Virus genome (UHGV): UHGV-0151084 | Source: a virus | Reading direction: 5' to 3' (one strand) | DNA: 49,280 nt | Shown here: positions 11,760 through 47,715 of the stretch, piece after piece | Position numbering within the stretch: the first letter of the stretch is position 1 | How the letters are laid out: every line of letters begins with the position of its first letter | Notes under the pieces: model-generated | Databases searched by the model: none | What the model was told of the DNA's origin: nothing | The model's input: the letters and a program-made list of their open reading frames with translations, nothing else | Position numbers and translations under genes: made by a program

Positions 11760-12100
11760 ATCGGCATTCCTCTGTTAGTATTAACAGTGAGAGTTATTTC
11801 CAATACACCAACATTATCTGATACTTCATCAACAATATAATTTTTACCGTTGATTTTCATTGACTGGTCTTTGACAGGGAGAACAGGAAAATCTTTTCTT
11901 GAAACAAATAATATTATTTGCCCCTGATTTATTCCCTCTGCAAACTCAGCATATGAGCGTTTATTACGCTCATGAATAAGGTCTGTATCAATAACGGCAA
12001 GGATATCCTTGCCGTCTATGTTATATGTATCGGCAAACTCTTTTTCATTGAGGAATATTGCAGAAATATCTTGCGCTATAACCTCTTTGAAGGAGTTCAT
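11756..12100 (-). CDS. Hypothetical head-tail joining protein (lambda FII position)
   Basis: 114 aa ORF in syntenic position. Confidence 0.35.
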   Translation of the reverse strand: MNSFKEVIAQDISAIFLNEKEFADTYNIDGKDILAVIDTDLIHERNKRSYAEFAEGINQGQIILFVSRKDFPVLPVKDQSMKINGKNYIVDEVSDNVGVLEITLTVNTNRGMPI

Positions 12101-22505: not shown

Positions 22506-23122
22506 ACCTCCCCTGCCAGCAATGCGGATACAAATCCGATATAGCTGCCATTATCATCAACATAACGAGATACCGCGCAGTCAAAACGATCCGCTTCCTC
22601 ATCCGTTGCCGGGATTTTATGACCTCCAAATGACAGGTACTGAACTTTTACGCCTGATTTGGCCTCATCCTTCTCAAATGGGATATCCATACCTTCTGTG
22701 TCATCGTAGACCGCCGCACTCAATAAGTTATCCAGTTCGCGCTGAGTAAAACCAATTGAGTCCAGAGCAAAATCATCGGCCGCAAGATCTGCAAGCTCCG
22801 CGCTTAACAACTCTTCATCCCAACCAGCATTCAGCGGAATACGGTTGTCGGCCAGACGATATGCCTTCTTCTGATTCTCCGTTAGCCCTTCCAGAACAAT
22901 GCAGGGAACATCATCCATCCCCAACTGAGTGGCCGCAGCAATTCGACCATGACCAGCAATTACAACGTTGCTTTCGTCTATCAGGATCGGATTAGTCCAT
23001 CCGTACTCCTGTATGCTGGCAACAATCTGATCTACCTGCTCCACGGAGTGTGTGCGAGCGTTCTTTTCATAACCAATCAACACAGAAAGTGGTAAAGAAA
23101 CCACATTAAGATGTTTTGTCAT
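22499..23122 (-). CDS. ParB/Srx-like nuclease domain protein (paralog of 19242..19832)
   Basis: 207 aa; clearly alignable to the 196-aa paralog (ARTHSVEQVDQIVASIQEYGWTNPILIDE, IAGHGRIAAA). Confidence 0.7.
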   Translation of the reverse strand: MTKHLNVVSLPLSVLIGYEKNARTHSVEQVDQIVASIQEYGWTNPILIDESNVVIAGHGRIAAATQLGMDDVPCIVLEGLTENQKKAYRLADNRIPLNAGWDEELLSAELADLAADDFALDSIGFTQRELDNLLSAAVYDDTEGMDIPFEKDEAKSGVKVQYLSFGGHKIPATDEEADRFDCAVSRYVDDNGSYIGFVSALLAGEVC

Positions 23123-26016: not shown

Positions 26017-26092
26017 TGGTGGCCCCTACCGGATTTGAACCGATGACCGTGCGATTATGAGTCGCCTGCTCTAACCACTGAGCTAAGGGGCC
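26017..26092 (-). tRNA. tRNA with anticodon CAU (tRNA-Ile2 / Met-type), CCA encoded
   Basis: Minus-strand 76 nt GGCCCCTTAGCTCAGTGGTTAGAGCAGGCGACTCATAATCGC...GGGGCCACCA folds as cloverleaf; acceptor, D and anticodon arms match the enterobacterial tRNA-Ile2 pattern as I recall it. Confidence 0.85.
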
Positions 26093-31448: not shown

Positions 31449-32516
31449 TCAGGCTTTCAATAGCGATTCTTTCAGATATCGGGCATCAGCCAGGGCGTTT
31501 GGAGTAATCTTACGAACCCATGCATTACGGGTTGGACTCCACTTAAAGGCGCGTGATTTAAGCAGCGAACGAATGTTTGCCTCTGGTTTGCCAGGGAAAT
31601 AAAACAGGATGCGGTTATCCTCTGGATCTATCTCCATAGAAAAGCCGTCGTATTCTTCGCGCTGTGCTCCTGTTACAGACTTGACCGATTCAAGCTCCTT
31701 AATACGGCTCTGTAGTCGTTTGATTTCGGCCTTATTGTTGCTCAGTGCGTATGAAGGGAATCCGATGTGCCCACAGAAATCTCCGGCCAGTAACTCTTTG
31801 GCTTCGCTTTCTGTAAACCTGAGATCGATTAATGCAGAAAGCTGCTGTAATTGGTCTTTTTTGTATTTGCGAATGGCCTTATTTGCGGCCTTCATTTTGA
31901 CGTGTGACTTCATGCAGCCTTGCAGCTTACGAAGCAACTTAAATAGCGCATCAGGATCATCAGACGAAATTCCATTACGACCAACACCTGCGGCTTTGCT
32001 CTCGTAGTGTGATGCTTTACTTTCGCATTCAACAAACGCTTTTCTGAATAACGCATCAGCTTTAGACAAACGGCGGCGATGGCCTTTCGCGCTATAATGG
32101 TCAACTAAAATCGGCTGGCCTAACGGGATCACATCCAACAGGTCATGCGCTCGCTTATGCGCTACCGCACCTTCTTTTCTGGCTTTTTCTGCACGAGCAA
32201 TATATCGGGCAAGACGCGCGTTCTGGCGTTCCTGATAGGTGTTTACGTAATCATCTCCGCGCTGCTGCTGTTCAAGCCATGCTTTGCGCAGATCTTCTGT
32301 TACGTCCACCAGCTCCGCAGGGATACAACCAGTTTGGGCTTCATAAGAGTAACCATCCTCATAGATGCGCCCATCGTCTTCAACAAAGAAAAAGGTTTCG
32401 TGCTCATCGCTTTTGACCATACGACCATTAACATGGCGTAATAGGTAGCCAGTATCAGTGCTTAACAGGCTGTTAGGGTTGTTGATCCAGTCAGAAATAA
32501 TTACTTGTTTATTCAT
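31449..32516 (-). CDS. Hypothetical protein, first gene behind copy 2 of the repeated promoter module
   Basis: 355 aa ORF; basic central region; identity uncertain. Confidence 0.4.
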   Translation of the reverse strand: MNKQVIISDWINNPNSLLSTDTGYLLRHVNGRMVKSDEHETFFFVEDDGRIYEDGYSYEAQTGCIPAELVDVTEDLRKAWLEQQQRGDDYVNTYQERQNARLARYIARAEKARKEGAVAHKRAHDLLDVIPLGQPILVDHYSAKGHRRRLSKADALFRKAFVECESKASHYESKAAGVGRNGISSDDPDALFKLLRKLQGCMKSHVKMKAANKAIRKYKKDQLQQLSALIDLRFTESEAKELLAGDFCGHIGFPSYALSNNKAEIKRLQSRIKELESVKSVTGAQREEYDGFSMEIDPEDNRILFYFPGKPEANIRSLLKSRAFKWSPTRNAWVRKITPNALADARYLKESLLKA

Positions 32517-34033: not shown

Positions 34034-34545
34034 TGATGGCCCCCGTCATTTCTGGTGCTTTTCACCGTGCGGCTTCTTAAAAACCTGCCATCACGAACAA
34101 CAGACACTTCTCGTTTACCCAACCTCATTTCACGGCGGTAACATTCAGAAAATGCCTCGTCCGGCATCATATAAATGCGACGCTTCGCCTCCGTATCCAG
34201 AAGGGAACGGCTTGGGGTTACATATAAAAACGACTCATCAATAGGGACAAAACCACGAGCAAGAATTGCTGGCAGAATGCCAGGAAGAACGCAGAAAACA
34301 GCTCCACGATGCAGCAACATCTGGTACTCCATGACCTCCGTTATCCCCGTGACTACTGTGACGGTGTCACGTCTGTTACGGCTGGCAACCAGTCGCTGCA
34401 CACGTCCAATTTTCTGATCTACAGATAGATGTTTGCTATCGTTATCAATATGATCGATAACAAATCCTTTAATCGTTTGATCAAGGTAGTGCACCACCTG
34501 CGATTGAATCTGGTGATTATCACCAAAGAAGGCCAGAATCATCAT
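34030..34545 (-). CDS. Hypothetical protein
   Basis: 171 aa ORF, coupled to Cro-like gene. Confidence 0.35.
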   Translation of the reverse strand: MMILAFFGDNHQIQSQVVHYLDQTIKGFVIDHIDNDSKHLSVDQKIGRVQRLVASRNRRDTVTVVTGITEVMEYQMLLHRGAVFCVLPGILPAILARGFVPIDESFLYVTPSRSLLDTEAKRRIYMMPDEAFSECYRREMRLGKREVSVVRDGRFLRSRTVKSTRNDGGHQ

Positions 34546-35036
34546 TCCTCAAGCCTCCCAAGTGCTGAACGCCGGGCGTTGCTAATCTCCTTATGAATCA
34601 GCTCGATATCGCTGGAATCTTTATTCTTAAGCTCCAGCACGGTAATCGCATCACGAACCTCTGAAACGGTTACGTGTGAGTGTTTCCAGCGAGCAATGAA
34701 TCGCGGACCGCGTAGATTGCAACGCTCCGCAGGCATCCCCAGCTCAGAGAAAACCGCTTTCAGCCTTGATAAGCAGTTAACAGGGAGGTTCCCTTTGATC
34801 TTGTTCTGCCGAACCGATGTGCCATCGCTACGCTGGCGCTGACGTTCGGCAAAATCTGCCGCCCATTGCTGGACGTTAATCCGGCCTTCCGAATACGCCA
34901 CCAGCAGCGTCAGGTTATCCGCACGAGGGAATCTCTCGAAGCGATACCAGGCACCAATCAGTGATGACGTAAAGCCAAACTTTCTGGCAACACCAATTTG
35001 GCCTCCATTTTCGTCAACCCACTCCTGAAAGGTCAT
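34542..35036 (-). CDS. Cro-like early regulator
   Basis: 164 aa, N-terminal HTH, divergent from CI-like repressor across an operator-rich intergenic region. Confidence 0.5.
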   Translation of the reverse strand: MTFQEWVDENGGQIGVARKFGFTSSLIGAWYRFERFPRADNLTLLVAYSEGRINVQQWAADFAERQRQRSDGTSVRQNKIKGNLPVNCLSRLKAVFSELGMPAERCNLRGPRFIARWKHSHVTVSEVRDAITVLELKNKDSSDIELIHKEISNARRSALGRLEE

Positions 35037-35055: not shown

Positions 35056-35173
35056 ACCACGATATGTGGTATTAAAACCACATATCGTGAGTTTTTCAAT
35101 GGGCGAAACAAAAAATAACCTTCTATTTGTGGTCCACCTCTCGTCTTACCATGTGAAAACCACTAAATGTGGT
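35056..35173. promoter_or_regulatory. Immunity operator cluster (ACCAC-N5-GTGGT sites at 35056-35070, 35077-35091, 35159-35173)
   Basis: Three 15-bp inverted-repeat sites in the divergent Cro-like / CI-like intergenic region. Confidence 0.65.
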
Positions 35174-35210
35174 AATGTATAAATAACCCACCATTCACGA
35201 TTGATGAGAC

Positions 35211-35867
35211 ATGAAAAGCAACGACGAGAACATCAAGAAAGAAATAGGTCTGCGCATTCAGACTCTACGGAAACAATCCGGCATGACTGCCGGAGATCTC
35301 CAGCAAGTCACTGGAATAGGCTTAAGCACCTTGCAGAACTATGAGGCCGGATTAAGACAACCATCTATACCTGCCATCAAGAAAATCGCGCACGCCCTGA
35401 AAGCATCAGCGCCTTATATCGCGTGCTTAACAGATAACCCGTTCCCACCCCAGAATACTAACGCTCCTGTTATTCCTGGGCTTGTAGCTATAAAAAATGA
35501 CATAGCATCGCACGCCGGAGAAAAGCCAGTGCTGGCGATAGAACAGGAGATTCTACGAAGCAAGAACATCAACCCATCGTCTCTGTCAGTTCTCCAGAGC
35601 AACGATGAGTTAATGTCACCAACAATATCCCCTGGCTCCCAAGTCCTGATTGATACAGACGATACAGAGATTCATGAGGGGATCTATGCCCTTGAAGACA
35701 GAAATGGCCTGGTTGTTTTGAGGCACTGTAGAGTCATACCGGGTGACAATGCTGTTATGCTGTCAACCGAAAGGGATGCTGAAATGAACACTAAGCATCT
35801 GAATAACGAGGAATTTAAGCGTTATAAAGTTCTTGGCCGCGTAGTTAGTGTTGTCAACTGGTTATGA
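35211..35867 (+). CDS. CI-like repressor (XRE HTH + S24 LexA-like peptidase domain)
   Basis: 218 aa; N-terminal HTH (LQQVTGIGLSTLQNYEAG), C-terminal S24-like region. Confidence 0.8.
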   Translation: MKSNDENIKKEIGLRIQTLRKQSGMTAGDLQQVTGIGLSTLQNYEAGLRQPSIPAIKKIAHALKASAPYIACLTDNPFPPQNTNAPVIPGLVAIKNDIASHAGEKPVLAIEQEILRSKNINPSSLSVLQSNDELMSPTISPGSQVLIDTDDTEIHEGIYALEDRNGLVVLRHCRVIPGDNAVMLSTERDAEMNTKHLNNEEFKRYKVLGRVVSVVNWL

Positions 35868-35909
35868 TACACAGCACGGCGAAAGCCGTGCATTTCTACG
35901 CTCAAAAAA

Positions 35910-35924
35910 ACCACATTTTGTGGT
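35910..35924. promoter_or_regulatory. Additional operator site (ACCACATTTTGTGGT) downstream of CI-like gene
   Basis: Perfect-armed copy of the ACCAC-N5-GTGGT motif. Confidence 0.55.
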
Positions 35925-35959: not shown

Positions 35960-36334
35960 ATGGAATTACATACAGCCAATAAAAACGAAACTCTGATCAC
36001 TGCTGGAATCGAAATCCAAGCGTTGAACATAGCGATTGAGTGTATGTTATGCCAAATCATTGATAATGAAAAAGATATCGACTGGATAGAATCTATCCTT
36101 CATCTGGCATCAGAACAAAAAGTCTGCCTCAAAACGGCCTTACAATACGATGTGCCAGCGGTATCGAAGCTGTGCCAGCCATTGATGGCATATAACAGGG
36201 CTATTATTTCTGTATGCCTCATGATTCTTGATGAAAACACCCCTCTTAGCGACCGCTCAGAAGCTGCTCTAACACTCTCACGTAAACAGCGACAGCTAGC
36301 AAATCAACTGATATCAACGATAGCTGACCTCTGA
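35960..36334 (+). CDS. Hypothetical protein
   Basis: 124 aa ORF with AAGAGG RBS. Confidence 0.4.
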   Translation: MELHTANKNETLITAGIEIQALNIAIECMLCQIIDNEKDIDWIESILHLASEQKVCLKTALQYDVPAVSKLCQPLMAYNRAIISVCLMILDENTPLSDRSEAALTLSRKQRQLANQLISTIADL

Positions 36335-36364
36335 CTGAAAGCGGGCTAACGCCCGCTTATATGA

Positions 36365-36460
36365 TTATAGATTTATATAATTATATAAAACGCTTTTCAT
36401 CCGCCAAAAAGTTGGTTATGCTTACCTCGTTCTATAAATATAGATTTATATAATTATATA
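36365..36460. repeat. AT-rich iterons (ATAGATTTATATAATTATATAA x2) upstream of parA; candidate partition site / operator
   Basis: Two copies at 36365-36390 and 36431-36460; a third between parA and the ParG-like gene at 37141-37170. Confidence 0.5.
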
Positions 36461-36484
36461 ACCAAACACATGGAGTCTCGACAA

Positions 36485-37652: not shown

Positions 37653-37676
37653 AAAAAAGGCCCCCGAAGGGGCCTA
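37653..37676. terminator. Hairpin terminator (GGCCCC-CGAA-GGGGCC) with A/T runs
   Basis: Perfect 6-bp GC stem; T-run on minus strand. Confidence 0.55.
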
Positions 37677-38096
37677 ATCGCTACTTGCTGCTAATGTTTA
37701 TCGTCACATTCAGAGCGTTATCAGTAATCTTCCAACCCTCCCCATGTGGCGTAAACAAAGCTCCAGTAACAACGATAAAAATACACATACAGTATTTTTT
37801 CATTGTATGGCCCTTACAGGCCGTTTCACGGCATCCCCACCGACGAAAACAACGCGAGAGCAAGCACGGCTGCTTGTGCTTGCATGTACGGCAACAGGAA
37901 ATCCTCCCCTAAAGTCGGTGCCCGGGTGCGAATCGGCGGGAAGGTCCACAGGTATTTTACGATTATTTTAAGATTAGTAATAGGAAAGAAATTAAACGAA
38001 AAAAACAGTTTATTTTCACAAAATCAGTAACCTACCCACAATCTGTGAGTTTGCTGACACAACAAGAACCACAATTTTTTGATGTATAATAGTGGA

Positions 38097-38227
38097 CTAT
38101 TATTACCTTTTGAGTAAAATCAATTTGCTGCTTGTGCTTGCGTGGTTGTTTATACAACAACGTAATGCTGAAAGGACCGCGAATCCGATCAGCACGAAAG
38201 AACCGTCCTCAATAGGGCGGTTTTTTT
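38097..38227 (+). ncRNA. Candidate small RNA (extended -10 promoter TGTATAAT at 38083-38090 to terminator at 38199-38227)
   Basis: Promoter-like element followed about 110 nt later by hairpin AACCGUCCU/AGGGCGGUU plus U7; no ORF. Confidence 0.35.
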
Positions 38228-38291
38228 GTTTCTGCCTACCAATAAACCCACGCTATGTGGTTGTCTCTGTTAAAATCCCGCCGTATTGACA

Positions 38292-38396
38292 TGAATGCGC
38301 CATTGGTGGACACTTTCCGAGCCGTAGCAAAATCTACGGTCGGGATTAGCCTCCTGAATAACACGATGGCGCATACCGCGTTAGCGGTTTTTTTAT
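38292..38396 (+). ncRNA. Candidate structured RNA upstream of antirepressor operon
   Basis: TTGAC at 38286, internal hairpin CCGTAG/CTACGG, terminator ACCGC-GTTA-GCGGT + T7; shares GATTAGCCTC with the downstream leader. Confidence 0.3.
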
Positions 38397-38556
38397 GCGT
38401 AGAGCACTGTTACGCCCAAATTATGGTGGGTCGTACAGGGGCGGAGAAATCCGCGCCGGTTCGTCATTGTGTCCGGTAAGGCTAACCCTGTACGGCTCAC
38501 CACCATTTGATTAGCCTCGAATGGCGGTGATAGTTCCATATACTGGAGATATCACA

Positions 38557-38748
38557 ATGACAAACCTACCCCATGACTATTACGTCAACCTCGTAAAGAT
38601 CCTTCTCAAGAAAGCCTCATACGCCGATAAATTCCGCCTGGCTGAAATCATCGAGCGCGAAGCTATGCGCATCGCCAGCAACGATAACGCTGTTTCTGAC
38701 GCAAAAATCTCCCTCGTAACCAAAGTAGTTATGGGAGGTGCAAAATGA
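38557..38748 (+). CDS. Small protein translationally coupled to antirepressor
   Basis: ATG 38557 with GGAG RBS; stop overlaps antirepressor start (ATGA). Confidence 0.4.
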   Translation: MTNLPHDYYVNLVKILLKKASYADKFRLAEIIEREAMRIASNDNAVSDAKISLVTKVVMGGAK

Positions 38749-40013
38749 AAACGCTTCCGACCGTTAACACCCTACAGCCTATCCTGCATAACCAAATCCC
38801 TGTCATTACTACCGAGTTACTGGCACAGCTTTACGGCGTATCTCCTGTACGCATTCGACAAAATCATCATGAGAATAAGGAACGCTTCATTGAAGGTAAG
38901 CACTACTTCAAAATTGAAGGTAACGAACTTCGAGAGTTAAAGCACAAAGTGACTCAAGATAATGATGTGAAGAACAAAAACTCTTTAAGAGATTCAGTTA
39001 ATGACGCCCCCTCTAAAAGAGAGAGCGACGAGCACAGAGTAGTTTTAAACTACTCTGTTAACCACAAGGTAACTAAAAGTCACTCTGTGAAAATCGCCCG
39101 TAACGTTCGCTCCCTCATTCTCTGGACAGAACGCGGGGCTGCACGTCACGCCAAAATGCTTGAAACTAACCAAGCGTGGGATGTGTTCGAACGGCTGGAA
39201 GACTGCTACTTCAACCAGAACGCGCAAACGGCCGCGACCGTAACCGTCTCGCCAAACAATGCTCGTGAGGTTGTCGATACGCTCAACGCCAAACCGATGT
39301 TTTACATTAAGGTGTGCAATAACGAGCCACTCACAACCTCGGCCGATGTTGCCCAGGCATTCAGCACCACAAACAATTCCATCGTTATGGCCATCGATGC
39401 GTTACGCATTCCTCGCACAGCTGCGGCGCGTCATTTCTTTAAAGAGCAACGACCGTTGGAAGGAAGCGACCGCGAAATAACAATCTATCGCATGACAAAA
39501 GACGGATTTACCTTGCTCATGGAGAGCATCGACGGTCCAGGCGTAAAAGATATCAAGCTGGCCTACATTGAAGCCTTTAACGCTATCAGCAGCGTGTTAA
39601 AAACACAGTACGAGCGTGATCTGGCTAAACGACTGTACCAAGAAAAAACGATTATCCGCGCGGCAACAGAGCATAATCGGCTATTAACGGAACCGAACTA
39701 CCGCAAGACACTAATCAAAGAGTTTGACAAGGCGACGGAGAAAACTAAAGCGGCGCTAAGTCTGCCAGCAATGACTCAGGAAAATGTGATATCAGCCTTA
39801 CTTCTTGATCTGCTCAGGAACGCCAGAGCACTTATCAGCTTTGACGAGGACCTGAATCCTCAGCTCAAGCTACTACCACCGACAGGCAAAGTAGTCGACC
39901 AGGCTGATCACAACAGCATACTCAGCGTTCTGGATGCAAACCTGCCAGCCAGGACACTACAGGATCTGATAAAAACATGTGCTGATAAGCTGGCACAGAA
40001 AAGCAGACCATAA
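38745..40013 (+). CDS. Antirepressor (ORF6N-type N-terminal + Rha-type C-terminal domains)
   Basis: 422 aa; N-terminal IPVITTELLAQLYGVSPVRIRQNHHENKERFIEGKHYFKIEG; central TTSADVAQAF...TIYRMTKDGFTLLM resembles Rha. Confidence 0.7.
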   Translation: MKTLPTVNTLQPILHNQIPVITTELLAQLYGVSPVRIRQNHHENKERFIEGKHYFKIEGNELRELKHKVTQDNDVKNKNSLRDSVNDAPSKRESDEHRVVLNYSVNHKVTKSHSVKIARNVRSLILWTERGAARHAKMLETNQAWDVFERLEDCYFNQNAQTAATVTVSPNNAREVVDTLNAKPMFYIKVCNNEPLTTSADVAQAFSTTNNSIVMAIDALRIPRTAAARHFFKEQRPLEGSDREITIYRMTKDGFTLLMESIDGPGVKDIKLAYIEAFNAISSVLKTQYERDLAKRLYQEKTIIRAATEHNRLLTEPNYRKTLIKEFDKATEKTKAALSLPAMTQENVISALLLDLLRNARALISFDEDLNPQLKLLPPTGKVVDQADHNSILSVLDANLPARTLQDLIKTCADKLAQKSRP

Positions 40014-40821: not shown

Positions 40822-41094
40822 TCATTTGATCCCTTGTTCCAATTCTGCCGACACTTTAACCTTTTCCCATACAAGGGTTTGCAGCCTTAACAGAATCGCA
40901 TCTTTATCAAGGTGTGAAAGATCCTTAACCATATCGTCAAACGACAGAACGCGAATGGCCATCTCCATGACCCTCGGCGGCACCCCCTTCTCATATCGCT
41001 TATATGTAGCCAACGATATCCCAAACTCTTCGGCGGCTCGCTCCTGCGTCCAGTTCATCCCACGACGCCATAATTTCAATTCGTAACCCGTCAT
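40822..41094 (-). CDS. XRE-family HTH regulator
   Basis: 90 aa; HTH (MNWTQERAAEEFGISLATYKRYEKG). Confidence 0.55.
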   Translation of the reverse strand: MTGYELKLWRRGMNWTQERAAEEFGISLATYKRYEKGVPPRVMEMAIRVLSFDDMVKDLSHLDKDAILLRLQTLVWEKVKVSAELEQGIK

Positions 41095-42268: not shown

Positions 42269-42568
42269 TCAGATGTTAAACGCTATTCGTTTTCCTGTGG
42301 GAAGCTCAACATCCAGGCTTAATTTGCCTCCCATAGCTTCAACGTAACGCTTTAATGTCGCCAGCTTTAAATCATTTCCGCGCTGCTCCAGCTTTGTTAC
42401 TGCTGGCTGGCTTATACCCATCGCCTCAGCAACCTGTTTTTGTGATAACTGGAGTTCTTCACGCATCATCTGCAAGCCGACCTCAAGAATCATCTCATCT
42501 GCCATTTCTTTAATTCGCGCCTGGCTTTCCGGTGAACGGCTGGCAATCGCCTCATCTAATGTTCTCAT
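42269..42568 (-). CDS. higA: HigA-like HTH antitoxin
   Basis: 99 aa; HTH (LSQKQVAEAMGISQPAVTKLE); start overlaps toxin stop. Confidence 0.65.
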   Translation of the reverse strand: MRTLDEAIASRSPESQARIKEMADEMILEVGLQMMREELQLSQKQVAEAMGISQPAVTKLEQRGNDLKLATLKRYVEAMGGKLSLDVELPTGKRIAFNI

Positions 42569-42921
42569 TACTTGCTCTCCAGTGTGTTCAGATGTGCTGC
42601 AAACTCATCCTCAGCTATACGCACCAGTTTTTCATAAAACCGCTTATCGTTACTTTTGTCTCCTGCACAAAGAACGATGGCCCGGCGAATCGGATCGAAC
42701 GCATAAAAGGCTCTTATCGGACGGCCAGAAAACTGAACGCGAAGCTCTTTCATATTTTTGTACCGAGAACCTTTTACGGTATCGGCATATGGCCTAGGTA
42801 ACTCAGGTCCGTAAACCTGTAGCTTTTTCAAATCAGCCAAAACCTTTTCCTGAAGAGCGTCTTCTTGCTCATTTAGCCAGTCGTCAAATCGCTGGCTAAA
42901 AAGTACCGTCCACATGCTCAA
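42568..42921 (-). CDS. higB: HigB/RelE-family toxin (addiction-module killer)
   Basis: 117 aa; toxin-upstream-of-antitoxin arrangement; C-terminal region resembles RelE/ParE-superfamily killers. Confidence 0.65.
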   Translation of the reverse strand: MSMWTVLFSQRFDDWLNEQEDALQEKVLADLKKLQVYGPELPRPYADTVKGSRYKNMKELRVQFSGRPIRAFYAFDPIRRAIVLCAGDKSNDKRFYEKLVRIAEDEFAAHLNTLESK

Positions 42922-44377: not shown

Positions 44378-45226
44378 TTAATGTTGGAGTGATTTCCAAG
44401 TCTTTCTTAACCTGTTATAACGCTGCTCAACGAGGGATCGTAAATATGCAAGGTCAGCTCCAGGATACATGCCATCAGCAAATTCCTGGCTAACCTCTCT
44501 AGTGATTTGATGACGAAGTTCGGCCTCTCCCTTTTCCCGAACAAGACGCGCAGCTCTCTCCGCTGCTTTCTGTTTTGCCTTTATCTCTCTGGCCGTCTTC
44601 CTCTGACGCCATACATTCTCCATCTGCTCCTGAATAACAATACGCTTATAATCAGCCTCCGTTATCGCTTTTTTAAGCCGTTCGCTATTCTTCGCATTGA
44701 AGTAATTAAGTTTCTGGCTAACCGCACGTCTCCATGCTTGTTCAGTAATACCAACGGTTTCCAGCAGTTGATCACGAATCTCTATTTTCGCTGGCCAATA
44801 CTGTTTATTCACCCGATCCCAGCGACGTTCATAATCAATAAAACCTAACGCTTTCAGTTGCGACAACGCCCTTGTACAGCGCGTTATAGACTTGTTCCCA
44901 GCTTCGGATACGGTAGACAGACCGCAAAAATCAGCCAACGCCTCAGCACTGGCCAGAACCCGCTTAGAAATGATGTTTACATGGTGCAAAATCGCAGCAA
45001 TCACAGCATTAATCGCCCGACGACGATGCTCGTTTATCCGGCGTTTCCGCTCTGACGGTTGATTAACGTAGAACGCAACCTCACACGTAAGATCACGACC
45101 ATTAATGCGCTGTAAAGCATCAGATAACACCAGCGGCAGCTTGTGCGTATGGTGCTTTGGAGGCTGGAACTCCGGCGACAAATTACAAACGTAAGCTGAA
45201 CGTAGAGACGGCATTGGTCTATCCAT
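44378..45226 (-). CDS. repA: Replication initiator RepA, IncFII (RepFIIA)-type
   Basis: Central region LSTVSEAGNKSITRCTRALSQLKALGFIDYE aligns with IncFII RepA1 (LATESAAGKLSITRATRALTFLSELGLITYQ); start placed at internal ATG 45226. Confidence 0.8.
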   Translation of the reverse strand: MDRPMPSLRSAYVCNLSPEFQPPKHHTHKLPLVLSDALQRINGRDLTCEVAFYVNQPSERKRRINEHRRRAINAVIAAILHHVNIISKRVLASAEALADFCGLSTVSEAGNKSITRCTRALSQLKALGFIDYERRWDRVNKQYWPAKIEIRDQLLETVGITEQAWRRAVSQKLNYFNAKNSERLKKAITEADYKRIVIQEQMENVWRQRKTAREIKAKQKAAERAARLVREKGEAELRHQITREVSQEFADGMYPGADLAYLRSLVEQRYNRLRKTWKSLQH

Positions 45227-45241
45227 ATGTTCGCTCTTGCG

Positions 45242-45348
45242 TCCACGGAAAACCAACGTATAATGGGAGTTGTCGAGGCGCCCATGGTTAATTGTTGGTT
45301 TTCCGTGGATGTCGCAAGAAGCCCGCAGATTTATCTGCGGGCTTTTTG
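45242..45348 (+). ncRNA. Candidate CopA-like antisense RNA in repA leader
   Basis: Plus strand: perfect 16-bp inverted repeat (45242-45257 / 45294-45309) then terminator GCCCGCAGAT/ATCTGCGGGC + T5, antisense to the repA 5' region. Confidence 0.45.
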
Positions 45349-45536
45349 TTTCCATATCTGGTCGCTTTCCAACCAGACACCCACAATCATAACCACGTTA
45401 CGTGGTTTTAAGAGAACTCTACCACAACACTTTCGGTCATGCACGAAGTCTCTCACTGATCGAACGATAATCCACCAGTAAAAGGATCTAAATTGGATCT
45501 CGTTTTGCGAGCATCATACTACTGGCCTAACTCCAG

Positions 45537-46091
45537 TCAATGATTCCCAGCCGGAAACCTGCGGTAAAGCGTGGATAAGGTAACATCGAAGATAATCGCT
45601 ATCCGCTTACGTGAAACACCATTCGCAATAAGCCTTCCGATCTGTTCCCATTGCTCTGGGGCCAATTTTGAGCGGCGTCCTCCTATCCTGCCATTAGCCC
45701 TTGCCACCGCCAATCCTGCACGCGTTCTTTCAATCATATTTTCCCGCTCCATCTCTGCGACTGCACTCAGCATCGTGTAGGCAAAGCGGCCAATTGAAGT
45801 GCTAATTTTTATCCCTTCCGTAATCGAAATAAACTCAATGTTGTTTGATAAAAAATGGTTAAGTAAATCAACAAGATGAATCAGAGAACGCCCCATTCGA
45901 TCCAGCTTCCAGACAATAACCGTATCGCCCGGCCGTAACACCTTCAGTAGCTTATCAAGCCCTGGTCGTTTTGATTTAGCACCGGATATTTTATCTTCAA
46001 AAATCCGGTCACATCCTGAACTCCTGAGCGCCTCCAGTTGTAATTCCAAATTCTGGTCAAAAGTTGACACCCTCGCATAACCATATTGCAT
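45537..46091 (-). CDS. Serine DNA invertase, Gin/Cin/Hin family
   Basis: 184 aa; YARVSTFDQ catalytic-serine motif, C-terminal HTH; 64 bp from gix-like site B. Confidence 0.85.
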   Translation of the reverse strand: MQYGYARVSTFDQNLELQLEALRSSGCDRIFEDKISGAKSKRPGLDKLLKVLRPGDTVIVWKLDRMGRSLIHLVDLLNHFLSNNIEFISITEGIKISTSIGRFAYTMLSAVAEMERENMIERTRAGLAVARANGRIGGRRSKLAPEQWEQIGRLIANGVSRKRIAIIFDVTLSTLYRRFPAGNH

Positions 46092-46119
46092 ACTTTCTAA
46101 ACCGCGATTGTTGCTAAAA

Positions 46120-46194
46120 GCGGGAAAAAATATCGTTCAGACGACACAGAGGCAATTCGCAAAAACCTCGGTTTACAGGAAACGGTAAACAAGG
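46120..46194. repeat. Left arm of inverted repeat flanking invertible tail-fibre cassettes
   Basis: 75 bp with 2 mismatches to the reverse complement of 49206-49280. Confidence 0.8.
46156..46181. other. gix-like recombination site B (TTCGCAAAAACCTCGGTTTACAGGAA)
   Basis: Inverted relative to sites A and C. Confidence 0.6.
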
Positions 46195-46205
46195 CTGGTA
46201 ACGCC

Positions 46206-47186
46206 GTGCAAAAGACAGGCGATACCTTGTCCGGTGGACTTACTTTTGAAAACGACTCAATCCTTGCCTGGATTCGGAATACTGACTGGGCAAAGATTGG
46301 ATTTAAAAATGATGCCGACAGCGACACTGATTCATACATGTGGTTTGAAACAGGCGACAACGGCAATGAATATTTCAAATGGAGAAGCAAACAAAGCACC
46401 ACAACAAAAGACCTGATGAATCTTAAATGGGATGCTTTGTATGTTCTTGTCAATGCCATTGTAAATGGCGAAGTCATATCAAAATCAGCAAACGGCCTAC
46501 GTATTGCTTATGGTAATTACGGATTCTTTATTCGTAATGATGGTTCAAATACATACTTCATGTTGACAAACTCCGGTGACAACATGGGGACTTATAACGG
46601 ATTAAGGCCATTATGGATTAATAACGCTACTGGCGCTGTTTCGATGGGGCGTGGCCTTAATGTTTCAGGGGAGACACTTTCAGACCGTTTTGCTATTAAC
46701 AGCAGTAATGGTATGTGGATTCAGATGCGCGATAACAACGCTATCTTTGGGAAAAATATAGTTAACACTGATAGCGCTCAGGCGTTGCTTCGCCAGAATC
46801 ACGCCGACCGAAAGTTCATGATAGGTGGACTGGGGAACAAGCAATTTGGCATCTACATGATTAATAACTCAAGGACAGCCAATGGCACCGATGGTCAGGC
46901 GTACATGGATAATAACGGGAACTGGCTTTGCGGCTCGCAAGTTATTCCCGGAAACTATGGCAATTTTGACTCCAGATATGTGAAAGATGTTCGACTTGGT
47001 TCACAGCAATATTATGGAGTGAACAACTGGCAAACATGGAATTTCCAGTGCCCGTCAGGTCATGTATTGTCTGGTATTAATGTTCAGGATACAGGGTCCA
47101 ACTCTGCCGATAATATAGCGGGCGTTTATTACAGACCCGTTCAAAAGTATATAAATGGCACCTGGTATAATGTAGCGAGCGTTTAA
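46206..47186 (+). CDS. Tail fibre variable C-terminal cassette (Sv'-like), currently not joined to the constant region
   Basis: Frame is open from 46101 through site B; first residues [15 protein letters not shown] identical to the end of the constant gene at the window start. Confidence 0.75.
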
Positions 47187-47187
47187 T

Positions 47188-47715
47188 ATGATGCACTTAA
47201 AGAACATAAAAGCGGGTAACGCTAAAACACTGGAACAGTATGAGTTAACAAAGAAACACGGAGTTATCTGGCTTTACTCTGAGGACGGAAAAAACTGGTA
47301 TGAGGAAGTGAAAAACTTTCAGTCAGACACAATAAAGATTGTTTACGATGCAAATAATATTATTGTCGCCATCACTAAAGATGCCTCCACGCTTAACCCT
47401 GAAGGTTTTAGCGTCGTTGAGGTTCCAGATATTACAGCCAACCGCCGCGCTGATGATTCAGGAAAGTGGATGTTTAAGGATGGAGCTGTAGTTAAACGGA
47501 TTTATACGGCAGACGAACAGCAACAACAAGCCGAATCACAAAAGGCCGCATTGCTTTCCGAAGCTGAATCAGTCATCCAGCCGCTGGAACGCGCTGTCAG
47601 GCTGAATATGGCAACAGACGAGGAACGCACACGACTGGAAACATGGGAACGCTACAGTGTTCTGGTCAGCCGTGTGGATACGGCAAATCCTGAATGGCCA
47701 CAAAAGCCTGAGTAA
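47188..47715 (+). CDS. Tail fibre assembly protein (Tfa, U'-like)
   Basis: 175 aa; conserved Tfa pattern (NWYEE...[14 protein letters not shown]...KWMFKDG). Confidence 0.8.

Follow-up and report, generated by a model that had tools for sequence, protein, structure and literature searches.

The 49,280-bp stretch of viral DNA UHGV-0151084, which is referred to here as the window, carries at positions 35056-35924 the regulatory region that is the subject of this study. Two genes diverge from this region. One encodes a CI-type repressor of 218 amino acids (35211..35867, plus strand), with an HTH_XRE N-terminal domain and a C-terminal domain that is probably derived from S24 and in which the Ser/Lys dyad is missing. 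The other encodes a Cro-like protein of 164 amino acids (34542..35036, minus strand) and is the first gene of a leftward early operon. Three copies of a 15-bp palindrome, ACCAC-N5-GTGGT, one of them imperfect, lie in the 174-bp gap between the two genes; a fourth copy is found just past the repressor gene, and a fifth near the plasmid replication gene repA. A preliminary description of this DNA had read the locus as an immunity switch, and that reading was borne out by our analysis: the operators between the divergent genes and beyond cI occur far above chance and are conserved. We consider that a circular phage-plasmid of about 49 kb probably uses this region as its primary immunity switch, with five operators, a link to repA, and induction through an antirepressor.

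Operator sites in the window

A search of the window for ACCAC-N5-GTGGT gave four perfect matches, starting at 35056, 35159, 35910 and 45392, where 0.02 were expected in 49,280 bp, and none of 100 shuffled sequences reached four. The first three (35056-35070, 35159-35173 and 35910-35924) had been listed in the preliminary description, and all three are perfect. Its remaining site, 35077-35091, had been given the same pattern but proved to be imperfect, with two mismatches in the right arm (GTGAG). Three sites do lie in the gap between the divergent genes, and the one past the CI-like gene starts 43 bp beyond the stop codon, past a terminator hairpin. A scan of the rest of the replicon, which had been proposed at that stage, was run and added a single perfect match, at 45392-45406. 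When the two ends of the window are joined, they match contiguous tail-fibre sequence in related plasmids, including the 48,488-bp plasmid of Escherichia coli ATCC 25922, and the records of related plasmids are circular. Since the ends join in this way, the window is, judging by these matches, essentially one complete circular phage-plasmid of about 49 kb, and scanning the window thus amounts to scanning the replicon.

Using a weight matrix built from the conserved sites, we obtained 23.8-31.5 bits for the five sites, with a maximum of 18.3 bits in 30 shuffles; the consensus including the flanks is AAAACCAC-N5-GTGGTTTT. Site 1 (OR1-like; 35056-35070, ACCACGATATGTGGT, 31.0 bits) covers the predicted start region of the cro-ward transcript. 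Site 2 (OR2-like; 35077-35091, ACCACATATCGTGAG, 25.3 bits) exactly fills the spacer of the predicted cro-ward promoter (35071..35099, minus strand), which consists of TTGAAA (35099-35094), 17 bp and TTTAAT (35076-35071) and scored 10/12 in a consensus scan. Sites 1 and 2 are 21 bp apart from centre to centre, that is, two helical turns, and therefore lie on the same face of the DNA. Site 3 (OR3-like; 35159-35173, ACCACTAAATGTGGT, 23.8 bits) is overlapped by both candidates for the cI promoter on the plus strand. One, from the consensus scan, is GTGAAA, 19 bp and TATAAA (35153..35183); the alternative is a predicted extended -10 element, TGgTAATGT (35170-35178), within the right arm of site 3, where GTGGTAAnGT is invariant in the alignment. 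Site 4 (35910-35924, ACCACATTTTGTGGT, 31.5 bits) is located between the cI terminator and the next gene; the terminator hairpin (35874..35891, plus strand) reads GCACGGC-GAAA-GCCGTGC in the sequence. Site 5 (45392-45406, ACCACGTTACGTGGT, 31.1 bits) falls in the promoter and leader region of repA, 37 bp upstream of the annotated repA open reading frame (ORF). An optional sixth site (38247-38261, CCCACGCTATGTGGT, one mismatch) reached 19.1 bits, just above the shuffle maximum of 18.3 bits.

Two further candidates were set aside. A pair of weak matches at 23079 and 23100 (window 23079-23114) falls in the first codons of a ParB/Srx gene and has the same 21-bp spacing as sites 1 and 2; with 7.1 and 12.1 bits, below the shuffle maximum, these are probably chance occurrences. 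The spacers of sites 1 and 2 are mutually reverse-complementary, which creates a near-perfect palindrome of 34 bp (35056-35091) with a terminator-like score. This palindrome is confined to the clade of the window, and a functional hairpin was ruled out, as the spacers are not complementary in relatives.

Conservation of the sites

Elements of matching size and gene order in Citrobacter, Klebsiella, Yokenella and Salmonella have a repressor 61-67% identical to that of the window, and four relatives in this range (L002-L005) were compared. Among relatives at this distance the positions of all five sites are kept and the arms are invariant, while the 5-bp spacers vary freely. Sites 1 to 4 are present in L002-L005, with site 2 placed 21 bp from site 1 and site 3 a further 82-83 bp away. 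The right arm of site 2 is imperfect, as GTGGG, in 4/4 relatives examined. In relatives, site 4 stands directly 3' of the cI terminator hairpin, whose stem is kept, whose loop is variable and which is followed by a T-run. Site 5 is retained upstream of repA in L002, L003 and L004 with differing spacers, and also in the ATCC 25922 plasmid. On the sequence level, this combination of invariant arms and drifting spacers is what one would expect of a site bound by a protein, not of an RNA fold or a repeat that arose by chance.

Viral contigs of ~45-47 kb supplied more distant relatives, whose CI is 30-33% identical and whose Cro-like protein is 41% identical to those of the window. They keep the recognition helix STLQNYEAG together with AAC(C/T)AC half-sites in the same layout, the helix peptide having been one search pattern for these loci. 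The half-sites number 5-6 per 340 bp of regulatory DNA, compared with 0.06-0.26 expected. The order terminator, operator, next gene at site 4 is preserved even there, and two sites bearing the half-site occupy the position of site 4.

Between sites 2 and 3, a further block (35117-35133), AACCT(T/C)CT(A/T)TT(T/C)GTGGT, is invariant in relatives while its flanks drift. It contains one isolated GTGGT half-site rather than a complete operator, and candidate roles for it are promoter element, Cro site or binding site of a host factor.

The repressor and its C-terminal domain

The N-terminal helix-turn-helix (HTH) of the CI-type repressor matched HTH_3 with 43 bits. Its C-terminal domain matched Pfam Peptidase_S24 (PF00717) with 20.0 bits (E = 5.7e-4), below the cutoff of 23.3 bits, and a precomputed S24 match was present in 0/13 database homologues of CI. 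Searches of solved structures in the PDB with the CI protein and with the family profile matched the HTH domain only, with no LexA or CI match, and were unusable for placing the catalytic dyad. A profile of the C-terminal domain, compared with 1.84 billion representatives, retrieved 428 proteins at E <= 1e-3, and the sampled canonical matches were genuine Peptidase_S24 repressors with 59-85 bits on PF00717. From these profile comparisons, the C-terminal domain is likely to be remotely homologous to S24 domains.

The position of the catalytic residues was read from two alignments. In a hidden Markov model (HMM) alignment of 164 sequences, the column of Leu134 contained Ser in 117; 103 sequences had both Ser and Lys, 42 had neither, and 19 were mixed. 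In a MAFFT alignment of 156 sequences anchored on Ser119/Lys156 of LexA and Ser149/Lys192 of lambda CI, Leu134 fell in the Ser column (Ser in 116/156) and Arg171 in the Lys column (Lys in 114/156). These two alignments replaced a MAFFT alignment of only three sequences, the repressor with LexA and lambda CI, which was unreliable for the C-terminal domain. Leu134 and Arg171 are invariant across the CI family and also in the 30%-identical relatives, and the motifs D-x-L-M-x-P-T-I and L-R-H-C-R are invariant in the family. The dipeptide Ala102-Gly103 in the linker of the window's protein is not conserved, relatives having SG, TG, GS, a single G or a gap. The repressor allele of ATCC 25922 (L024, NZ_CP009073.1, 22659-23321) carries an insertion of two residues (KL) in the former active-site motif, NDELKLMSP. 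LexA-box-like sequences were not enriched in the window (18, with 14 expected), and none lies in its regulatory DNA; the only perfect LexA-box core, at 11772, was ruled out as an SOS site, being inside a coding region, and boxes with one mismatch were not enriched either.

The preliminary description had assigned a LexA-type S24 domain to this protein and had taken this to imply SOS-inducible autocleavage. A kinship with S24 is likely, as a remote homology seen by profile, but the Pfam score is below cutoff and both catalytic residues are replaced. The second claim did not hold up: with Leu134 and Arg171 at the catalytic positions, an Ala-Gly that is not kept and regulatory DNA free of LexA boxes, the repressor does not look cleavable after DNA damage, as far as its sequence can tell. 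Neither the operator at repA nor the antirepressor module described below figured in the preliminary description, and both alter the view of the mechanism.

The Cro-like gene

The product of the Cro-like gene had no Pfam or PDB match and no meaningful similarity to lambda Cro. Over its whole length it matched PHROG 7452, a family of unknown function, and residues 1-53 weakly matched phrog_35 ('transcriptional repressor', E = 2e-3). With hhalign, residues 4-46 aligned to the HTH of P22 Cro at E = 6e-4, with a probability of only 29% and with a P22 sequence entered by hand. An AlphaFold2 (AF2) model was all-helical with low confidence (mean predicted local distance difference test, pLDDT, 56), and the C-terminal 100 residues lie outside the HTH-type alignments. 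Its close homologues in sequence all belong to this phage-plasmid group. The Cro-like assignment is thus a weak one, resting on position, on the weak PHROG and hhalign matches and on the all-helical prediction.

repA and copy control

The repA gene (44378..45355, minus strand) encodes an IncFII_repA protein (PF02387, 149.8 bits), the only recognisable initiator on the replicon. The ORF as called has 325 amino acids and is so annotated in RefSeq relatives too. Relatives do not keep its start, the ATG at 45355, and share instead the ATG at 45214, which gives about 278 amino acids; their RepA has 277. The called ORF is therefore probably over-extended, on the evidence of this alignment. The segment 45214-45355 (minus strand) has the features of a structured repA leader targeted by antisense RNA and may encode a tap-like leader peptide (MGASTTPIIRW...). 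Opposite this leader, a CopA-like countertranscript is predicted at 45268..45352 (plus strand), with a -10 element TATAAT at 45260-45265 and its own terminator. The RNA folds into two stem-loops (-41 kcal/mol, z = -6.1), and the leader, the antisense -10 element and the terminator are highly conserved.

Predicted repA-proximal promoter elements surround site 5 (45386..45424, minus strand), with an extended -10 element, TGgTAGAGT (45424-45416), just upstream of the site and TATGAT (45391-45386) just downstream; the extended element, as TGnTAGAGT, is conserved in relatives. A candidate constitutive repA promoter (45513..45540, minus strand; TTGACT, 16 bp, TATGAT; 10/12), also conserved and a stronger match, lies about 110 bp further upstream. 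In a search for a CopB candidate, we found no minus-strand ORF of at least 50 amino acids between repA and the invertase gene, and site 5 occupies the region where the CopB gene was sought.

The immI-type module

Downstream of cI, an isrK-like RNA (38321-38394, plus strand; Rfam 65.7 bits, above the gathering threshold) is followed by a C4 antisense RNA (38419-38507, plus strand; 70.8 bits against a gathering score of 45). Next come a small ORF (38558..38748, plus strand) and an antirepressor-like gene of 422 amino acids with Pfam ORF6N and Phage_pRha domains (38745..40013, plus strand), whose start overlaps the stop of the small ORF (ATGA). Nine nucleotides of C4 are complementary to 38553-38561, which covers the ATG of the small ORF at 38558. 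Both RNAs occur in L002 and L004, and C4 only in L003; by gene order, the module of C4, small ORF and Ant is also present in ATCC 25922.

The optional sixth site is positioned 74-60 bp upstream of isrK, with the same offset in L004, and it is found in ATCC 25922 as well. It lies upstream of the conserved TTGACA of the immI promoter without overlapping it. At immI we saw neither a LexA box nor any other obvious signal input. In P1, the immI logic is that of c4-icd-ant, and in P1, P22, N15 and the Gifsy phages such modules inactivate non-cleavable or primary repressors. By analogy with these phages, the antirepressor module is likely to be the induction route.

Just before this region, 38060-38235 (plus strand) contains a strong extended -10 element (TGTATAAT near 38085) and a terminator ~130 nt later (38205-38230), with no credible ORF between them, and may encode a small RNA. 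The terminator precedes the immI-proximal operator in L004 too and is absent in L002.

Neighbouring genes and occurrence of the element

The leftward early operon contains, after the Cro-like gene, ORFs of unknown function and genes for a Ref nuclease, a DUF1064 and a DUF3560 protein, with holins and a lysin further on. The rightward block comprises the CI-like gene, an ORF of 124 amino acids, ParA with a small partner protein, a ryfA RNA, the isrK and C4 RNAs and the ORF6N/Rha antirepressor-like gene. The remaining block holds a toxin-antitoxin pair, the IncFII-type repA, an invertase gene and tail-fibre genes. The 124-amino-acid ORF (35960..36334, plus strand; phrog_7632, unknown function) is directly 3' of site 4 and is possibly under repressor control.

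Several other features were noted along the replicon. The DUF3560 protein of the early operon (31449-32516, minus strand, 355 amino acids) matches a PHROG primase family with its C-terminal half (E = 3e-36) and may have a role in phage replication that is separate from that of RepA. A tRNA-Met gene (anticodon CAT; 26017-26092, minus strand) in the early/lysis region is kept in L002 and L003. Just upstream of parA, 36357-36469 contains AT-rich direct and inverted repeats (TATAGATTTATATAATTATATAA, two main copies ~73 bp apart), which are probably a partition operator or centromere. The ryfA RNA (37653-37949, minus strand), a full-length Rfam match of 143.5 bits, is flanked by the partition genes and immI. 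The chromosomal ryfA of enterobacteria is a type I toxin locus, and here it may act as a plasmid-stabilising module. A RelE/ParE-family toxin and an HTH antitoxin are encoded as a pair between immI and repA (42269-42921, minus strand), and a separate HTH_3 protein of 90 amino acids at 40822..41094 (minus strand). A Cin/Gin-type serine invertase gene adjoins the tail-fibre and tail-fibre-assembly genes (45537-47715), which suggests an invertible host-range segment; the ends of the window join within a tail-fibre gene carrying a repeated unit of ~100 bp.

The 3.2 kb around the switch are at least 95% identical to 58 non-mobilizable Escherichia and Klebsiella plasmids of ~46-50 kb and 98.9% identical to the Yersinia myophages vB_YpM_39, 41 and 44. 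Our literature search found no paper characterising the switch of this ~48-kb phage-plasmid family. Several leads were dropped: HQ103 is an unrelated peduovirus of 32 kb, the terms pSLy3 and p0111 refer to SSU5- and P1-type elements, and a paper on enterotoxigenic E. coli (ETEC) concerns P1- and SSU5-like plasmids.

Discussion

The working of the switch, as we infer it, would be as follows. A CI dimer would bind the palindromes AAAACCAC-N5-GTGGTTTT, the probable S24 derivative, dead as in other antirepressor-dependent phages, presumably serving only dimerisation and cooperativity. By occupying the predicted cro-ward promoter through sites 1 and 2, CI would keep the leftward early and lysis operon off, and at site 3, on its own predicted promoter, it would regulate its own synthesis. 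Site 4 could serve to regulate the gene that follows, or it could take part in DNA looping. At site 5, CI would repress repA, so that plasmid replication would be throttled as well, and would thereby take the role of CopB in an IncFII-type replicon. For induction, the P1-immI-type module 2.5 kb downstream would come into play: C4 RNA would block translation of the small ORF, to which the ORF6N/Rha antirepressor is coupled, and Ant, once made, would inactivate CI, by analogy with P1, P22, N15 and Gifsy.

Several points weigh against this account. Every promoter assignment is a consensus match in the sequence, and a stricter promoter scan of the gap between cro and cI found none; it missed the cro-ward candidate because position 2 of the -10 hexamer is T. 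No convincing sigma-70 promoter was found for the gene downstream of site 4. The S24 fold of the repressor is drawn from sequence profiles only, the AF2 model of the C-terminal domain having a pLDDT < 50. In the distant relatives, the association of recognition helix and half-site was partly selected for by the search pattern. Conservation extends to the Cro-like protein and its putative HTH, with 41% identity in distant relatives, so that the sites may be read by CI, by Cro or by both. At immI, the proximal operator is absent in L002, and Ant is tied to this CI by analogy alone.

Three other explanations of the locus were considered. The palindromes might be read mainly by the Cro-like protein or another factor, CI recognising something else. 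The N-terminus of the Cro-like protein resembles an HTH of the P22 Cro type, and Cro shares the CI operators in lambda-type switches; the protein matches the sites in conservation, down to the distant relatives, and may therefore share the operators. We regard this reading as improbable, however: around the CI gene we saw no second repeated motif, the single block at 35117-35133 being the only other conserved element in the gap, the half-site, where present, always comes with the same CI recognition helix, and sites at repA and past cI fit the known distribution of a prophage repressor, that of N15 CB. Still less can be said for a repressor of the lambda/LexA type that is inactivated by RecA-stimulated autocleavage and makes the prophage directly SOS-inducible. 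Such a repressor would agree with the remote S24 relationship of the C-terminal domain, seen in the Pfam match and in the profile matches to genuine S24 repressors, and with the linker Ala-Gly at 102-103, which stood opposite the LexA and lambda cleavage sites in the crude three-sequence alignment. Against it, Leu134 and Arg171 occupy the Ser and Lys columns across the family and the 30%-identical relatives alike, the Ala-Gly is variable, the Pfam match is below cutoff with no LexA or CI structure matched even by the family profile, and the ATCC 25922 allele has an insertion in the motif. With the catalytic dyad replaced, RecA-stimulated self-cleavage would thus not be the induction route, and we hold this explanation to be very improbable indeed.

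A third explanation leaves the switch as described and changes only its trigger. Instead of the immI antirepressor, induction might depend, for example, on a host protease that degrades CI, on a small antirepressor, with the 124-amino-acid ORF as a candidate, on temperature, or on fluctuation of copy number. Targeting of this CI by Ant is an analogy, immI shows no LexA box or obvious signal input, and the immI-proximal operator is not universal; moreover, the 124-amino-acid ORF is of unknown function, and its arrangement of terminator, operator and gene recurs in distant relatives. We nevertheless think another trigger unlikely. The complete module of C4, small ORF and Ant is conserved in the window, in L002 and L004 and, by gene order, in ATCC 25922, and in P1, P22, N15 and Gifsy it is modules of this kind that inactivate non-cleavable or primary repressors. 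A primary repressor that is not cleavable would need a route of the antirepressor type. Taken together, we prefer the reading of the region as a primary immunity switch with five operators, a link to repA and an antirepressor as the inducer.

A further suggestion, which we put forward tentatively, is that the repressor stands in for CopB and sets immunity and copy number at once, and that the antirepressor fires the lytic operon and RepA-driven replication together. Maintenance and lytic growth would in that case share one origin, and SOS would have no part in the switch at all. What is new here is the combination of modules; each is conceptually known, namely the lambda-like layout, the proposed N15-like control of repA, the dead domain of probable S24 type, the P1-type immI and the IncFII RepA/CopA system without CopB.

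It is increasingly appreciated that phage-plasmids carry resistance and defence genes, and the switches characterised are only those of P1, the N15 group and a few others. The ~48-kb family is common in Escherichia, to judge from the 58 plasmid records at >=95% identity, and on Yersinia pestis it yields infectious particles of the myophage type; a member is also present in E. coli ATCC 25922, a quality-control strain. Our reading predicts that standard SOS inducers may not induce these elements directly, that copy number is tied to immunity, and that an RNA-controlled antirepressor is the trigger. With modules of lambda, N15, P1 and IncFII types in one small, tractable replicon, the element would make a convenient model, and the system is experimentally convenient because ATCC 25922 is a natural lysogen.

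Compared with known systems, the layout resembles that of lambda and P22. A repressor gene and cro diverge, and the gap holds three operators, two close together on the lytic promoter and one on the maintenance promoter, both promoters being predictions here, with a further operator, here site 4, beyond cI where OL lies in lambda. The repressor likewise combines an HTH with a C-terminal domain, here probably of S24 kinship, and the N-terminus of the Cro-like protein weakly resembles P22 Cro. In contrast to lambda, the C-terminal domain appears to be catalytically dead and RecA-mediated autocleavage would not be expected, the distance between sites 2 and 3 is 82 bp instead of ~23 bp, the Cro-like protein has 164 amino acids with an extra C-terminal part, and one operator sits on a plasmid replication gene. 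The likeness to P1 is in immI: after the C4 antisense RNA comes a small ORF whose translation is coupled to that of an antirepressor-type gene. Here, however, the primary repressor is of the CI/XRE type and not P1 C1, and an isrK-like RNA precedes C4. The antirepressors of Gifsy and N15 are controlled by LexA boxes, whereas no such box was found at the module described here. With the IncFII plasmids R1 and R100, the element shares an IncFII_repA protein, a structured leader, a two-stem-loop countertranscript and, as predicted here, an upstream and a repA-proximal promoter. It differs from them in having no CopB gene and in carrying a phage repressor operator in the repA-proximal promoter region.

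The closest working analogue is the switch of N15 and phiKO2, also a phage-plasmid. Induction of N15 is via a separate antirepressor locus; the antirepressor module here is a different one, P1 immI-like. The N15/phiKO2 repressor CB has three operators in OR and, at the repA promoter, two in OL to which it binds; it represses repA, lowers copy number and has neither the Ser/Lys dyad nor a RecA cleavage site (PMC4997575). Cro of the N15 group binds OR3 only (PMC4997575). A repressor operator at repA is common to both systems, in our case the perfect site 5, through which repression of repA would be exerted. The two systems differ in their parts. N15 is linear, with telomeres and its own type of RepA, whereas the present element is circular, with an IncFII-type RepA and a CopA-like antisense RNA. 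The two repA operators of N15 are adjacent to the repressor gene, whereas there is one here, 9.5 kb from cI, and the 16-bp T-A-N10-T-A operators of N15 contrast with the 15-bp ACCAC-N5-GTGGT of our sites. By this comparison, the present switch looks like a functional analogue of the N15 switch that has been assembled from different parts, and not like a member of the N15 phage group.

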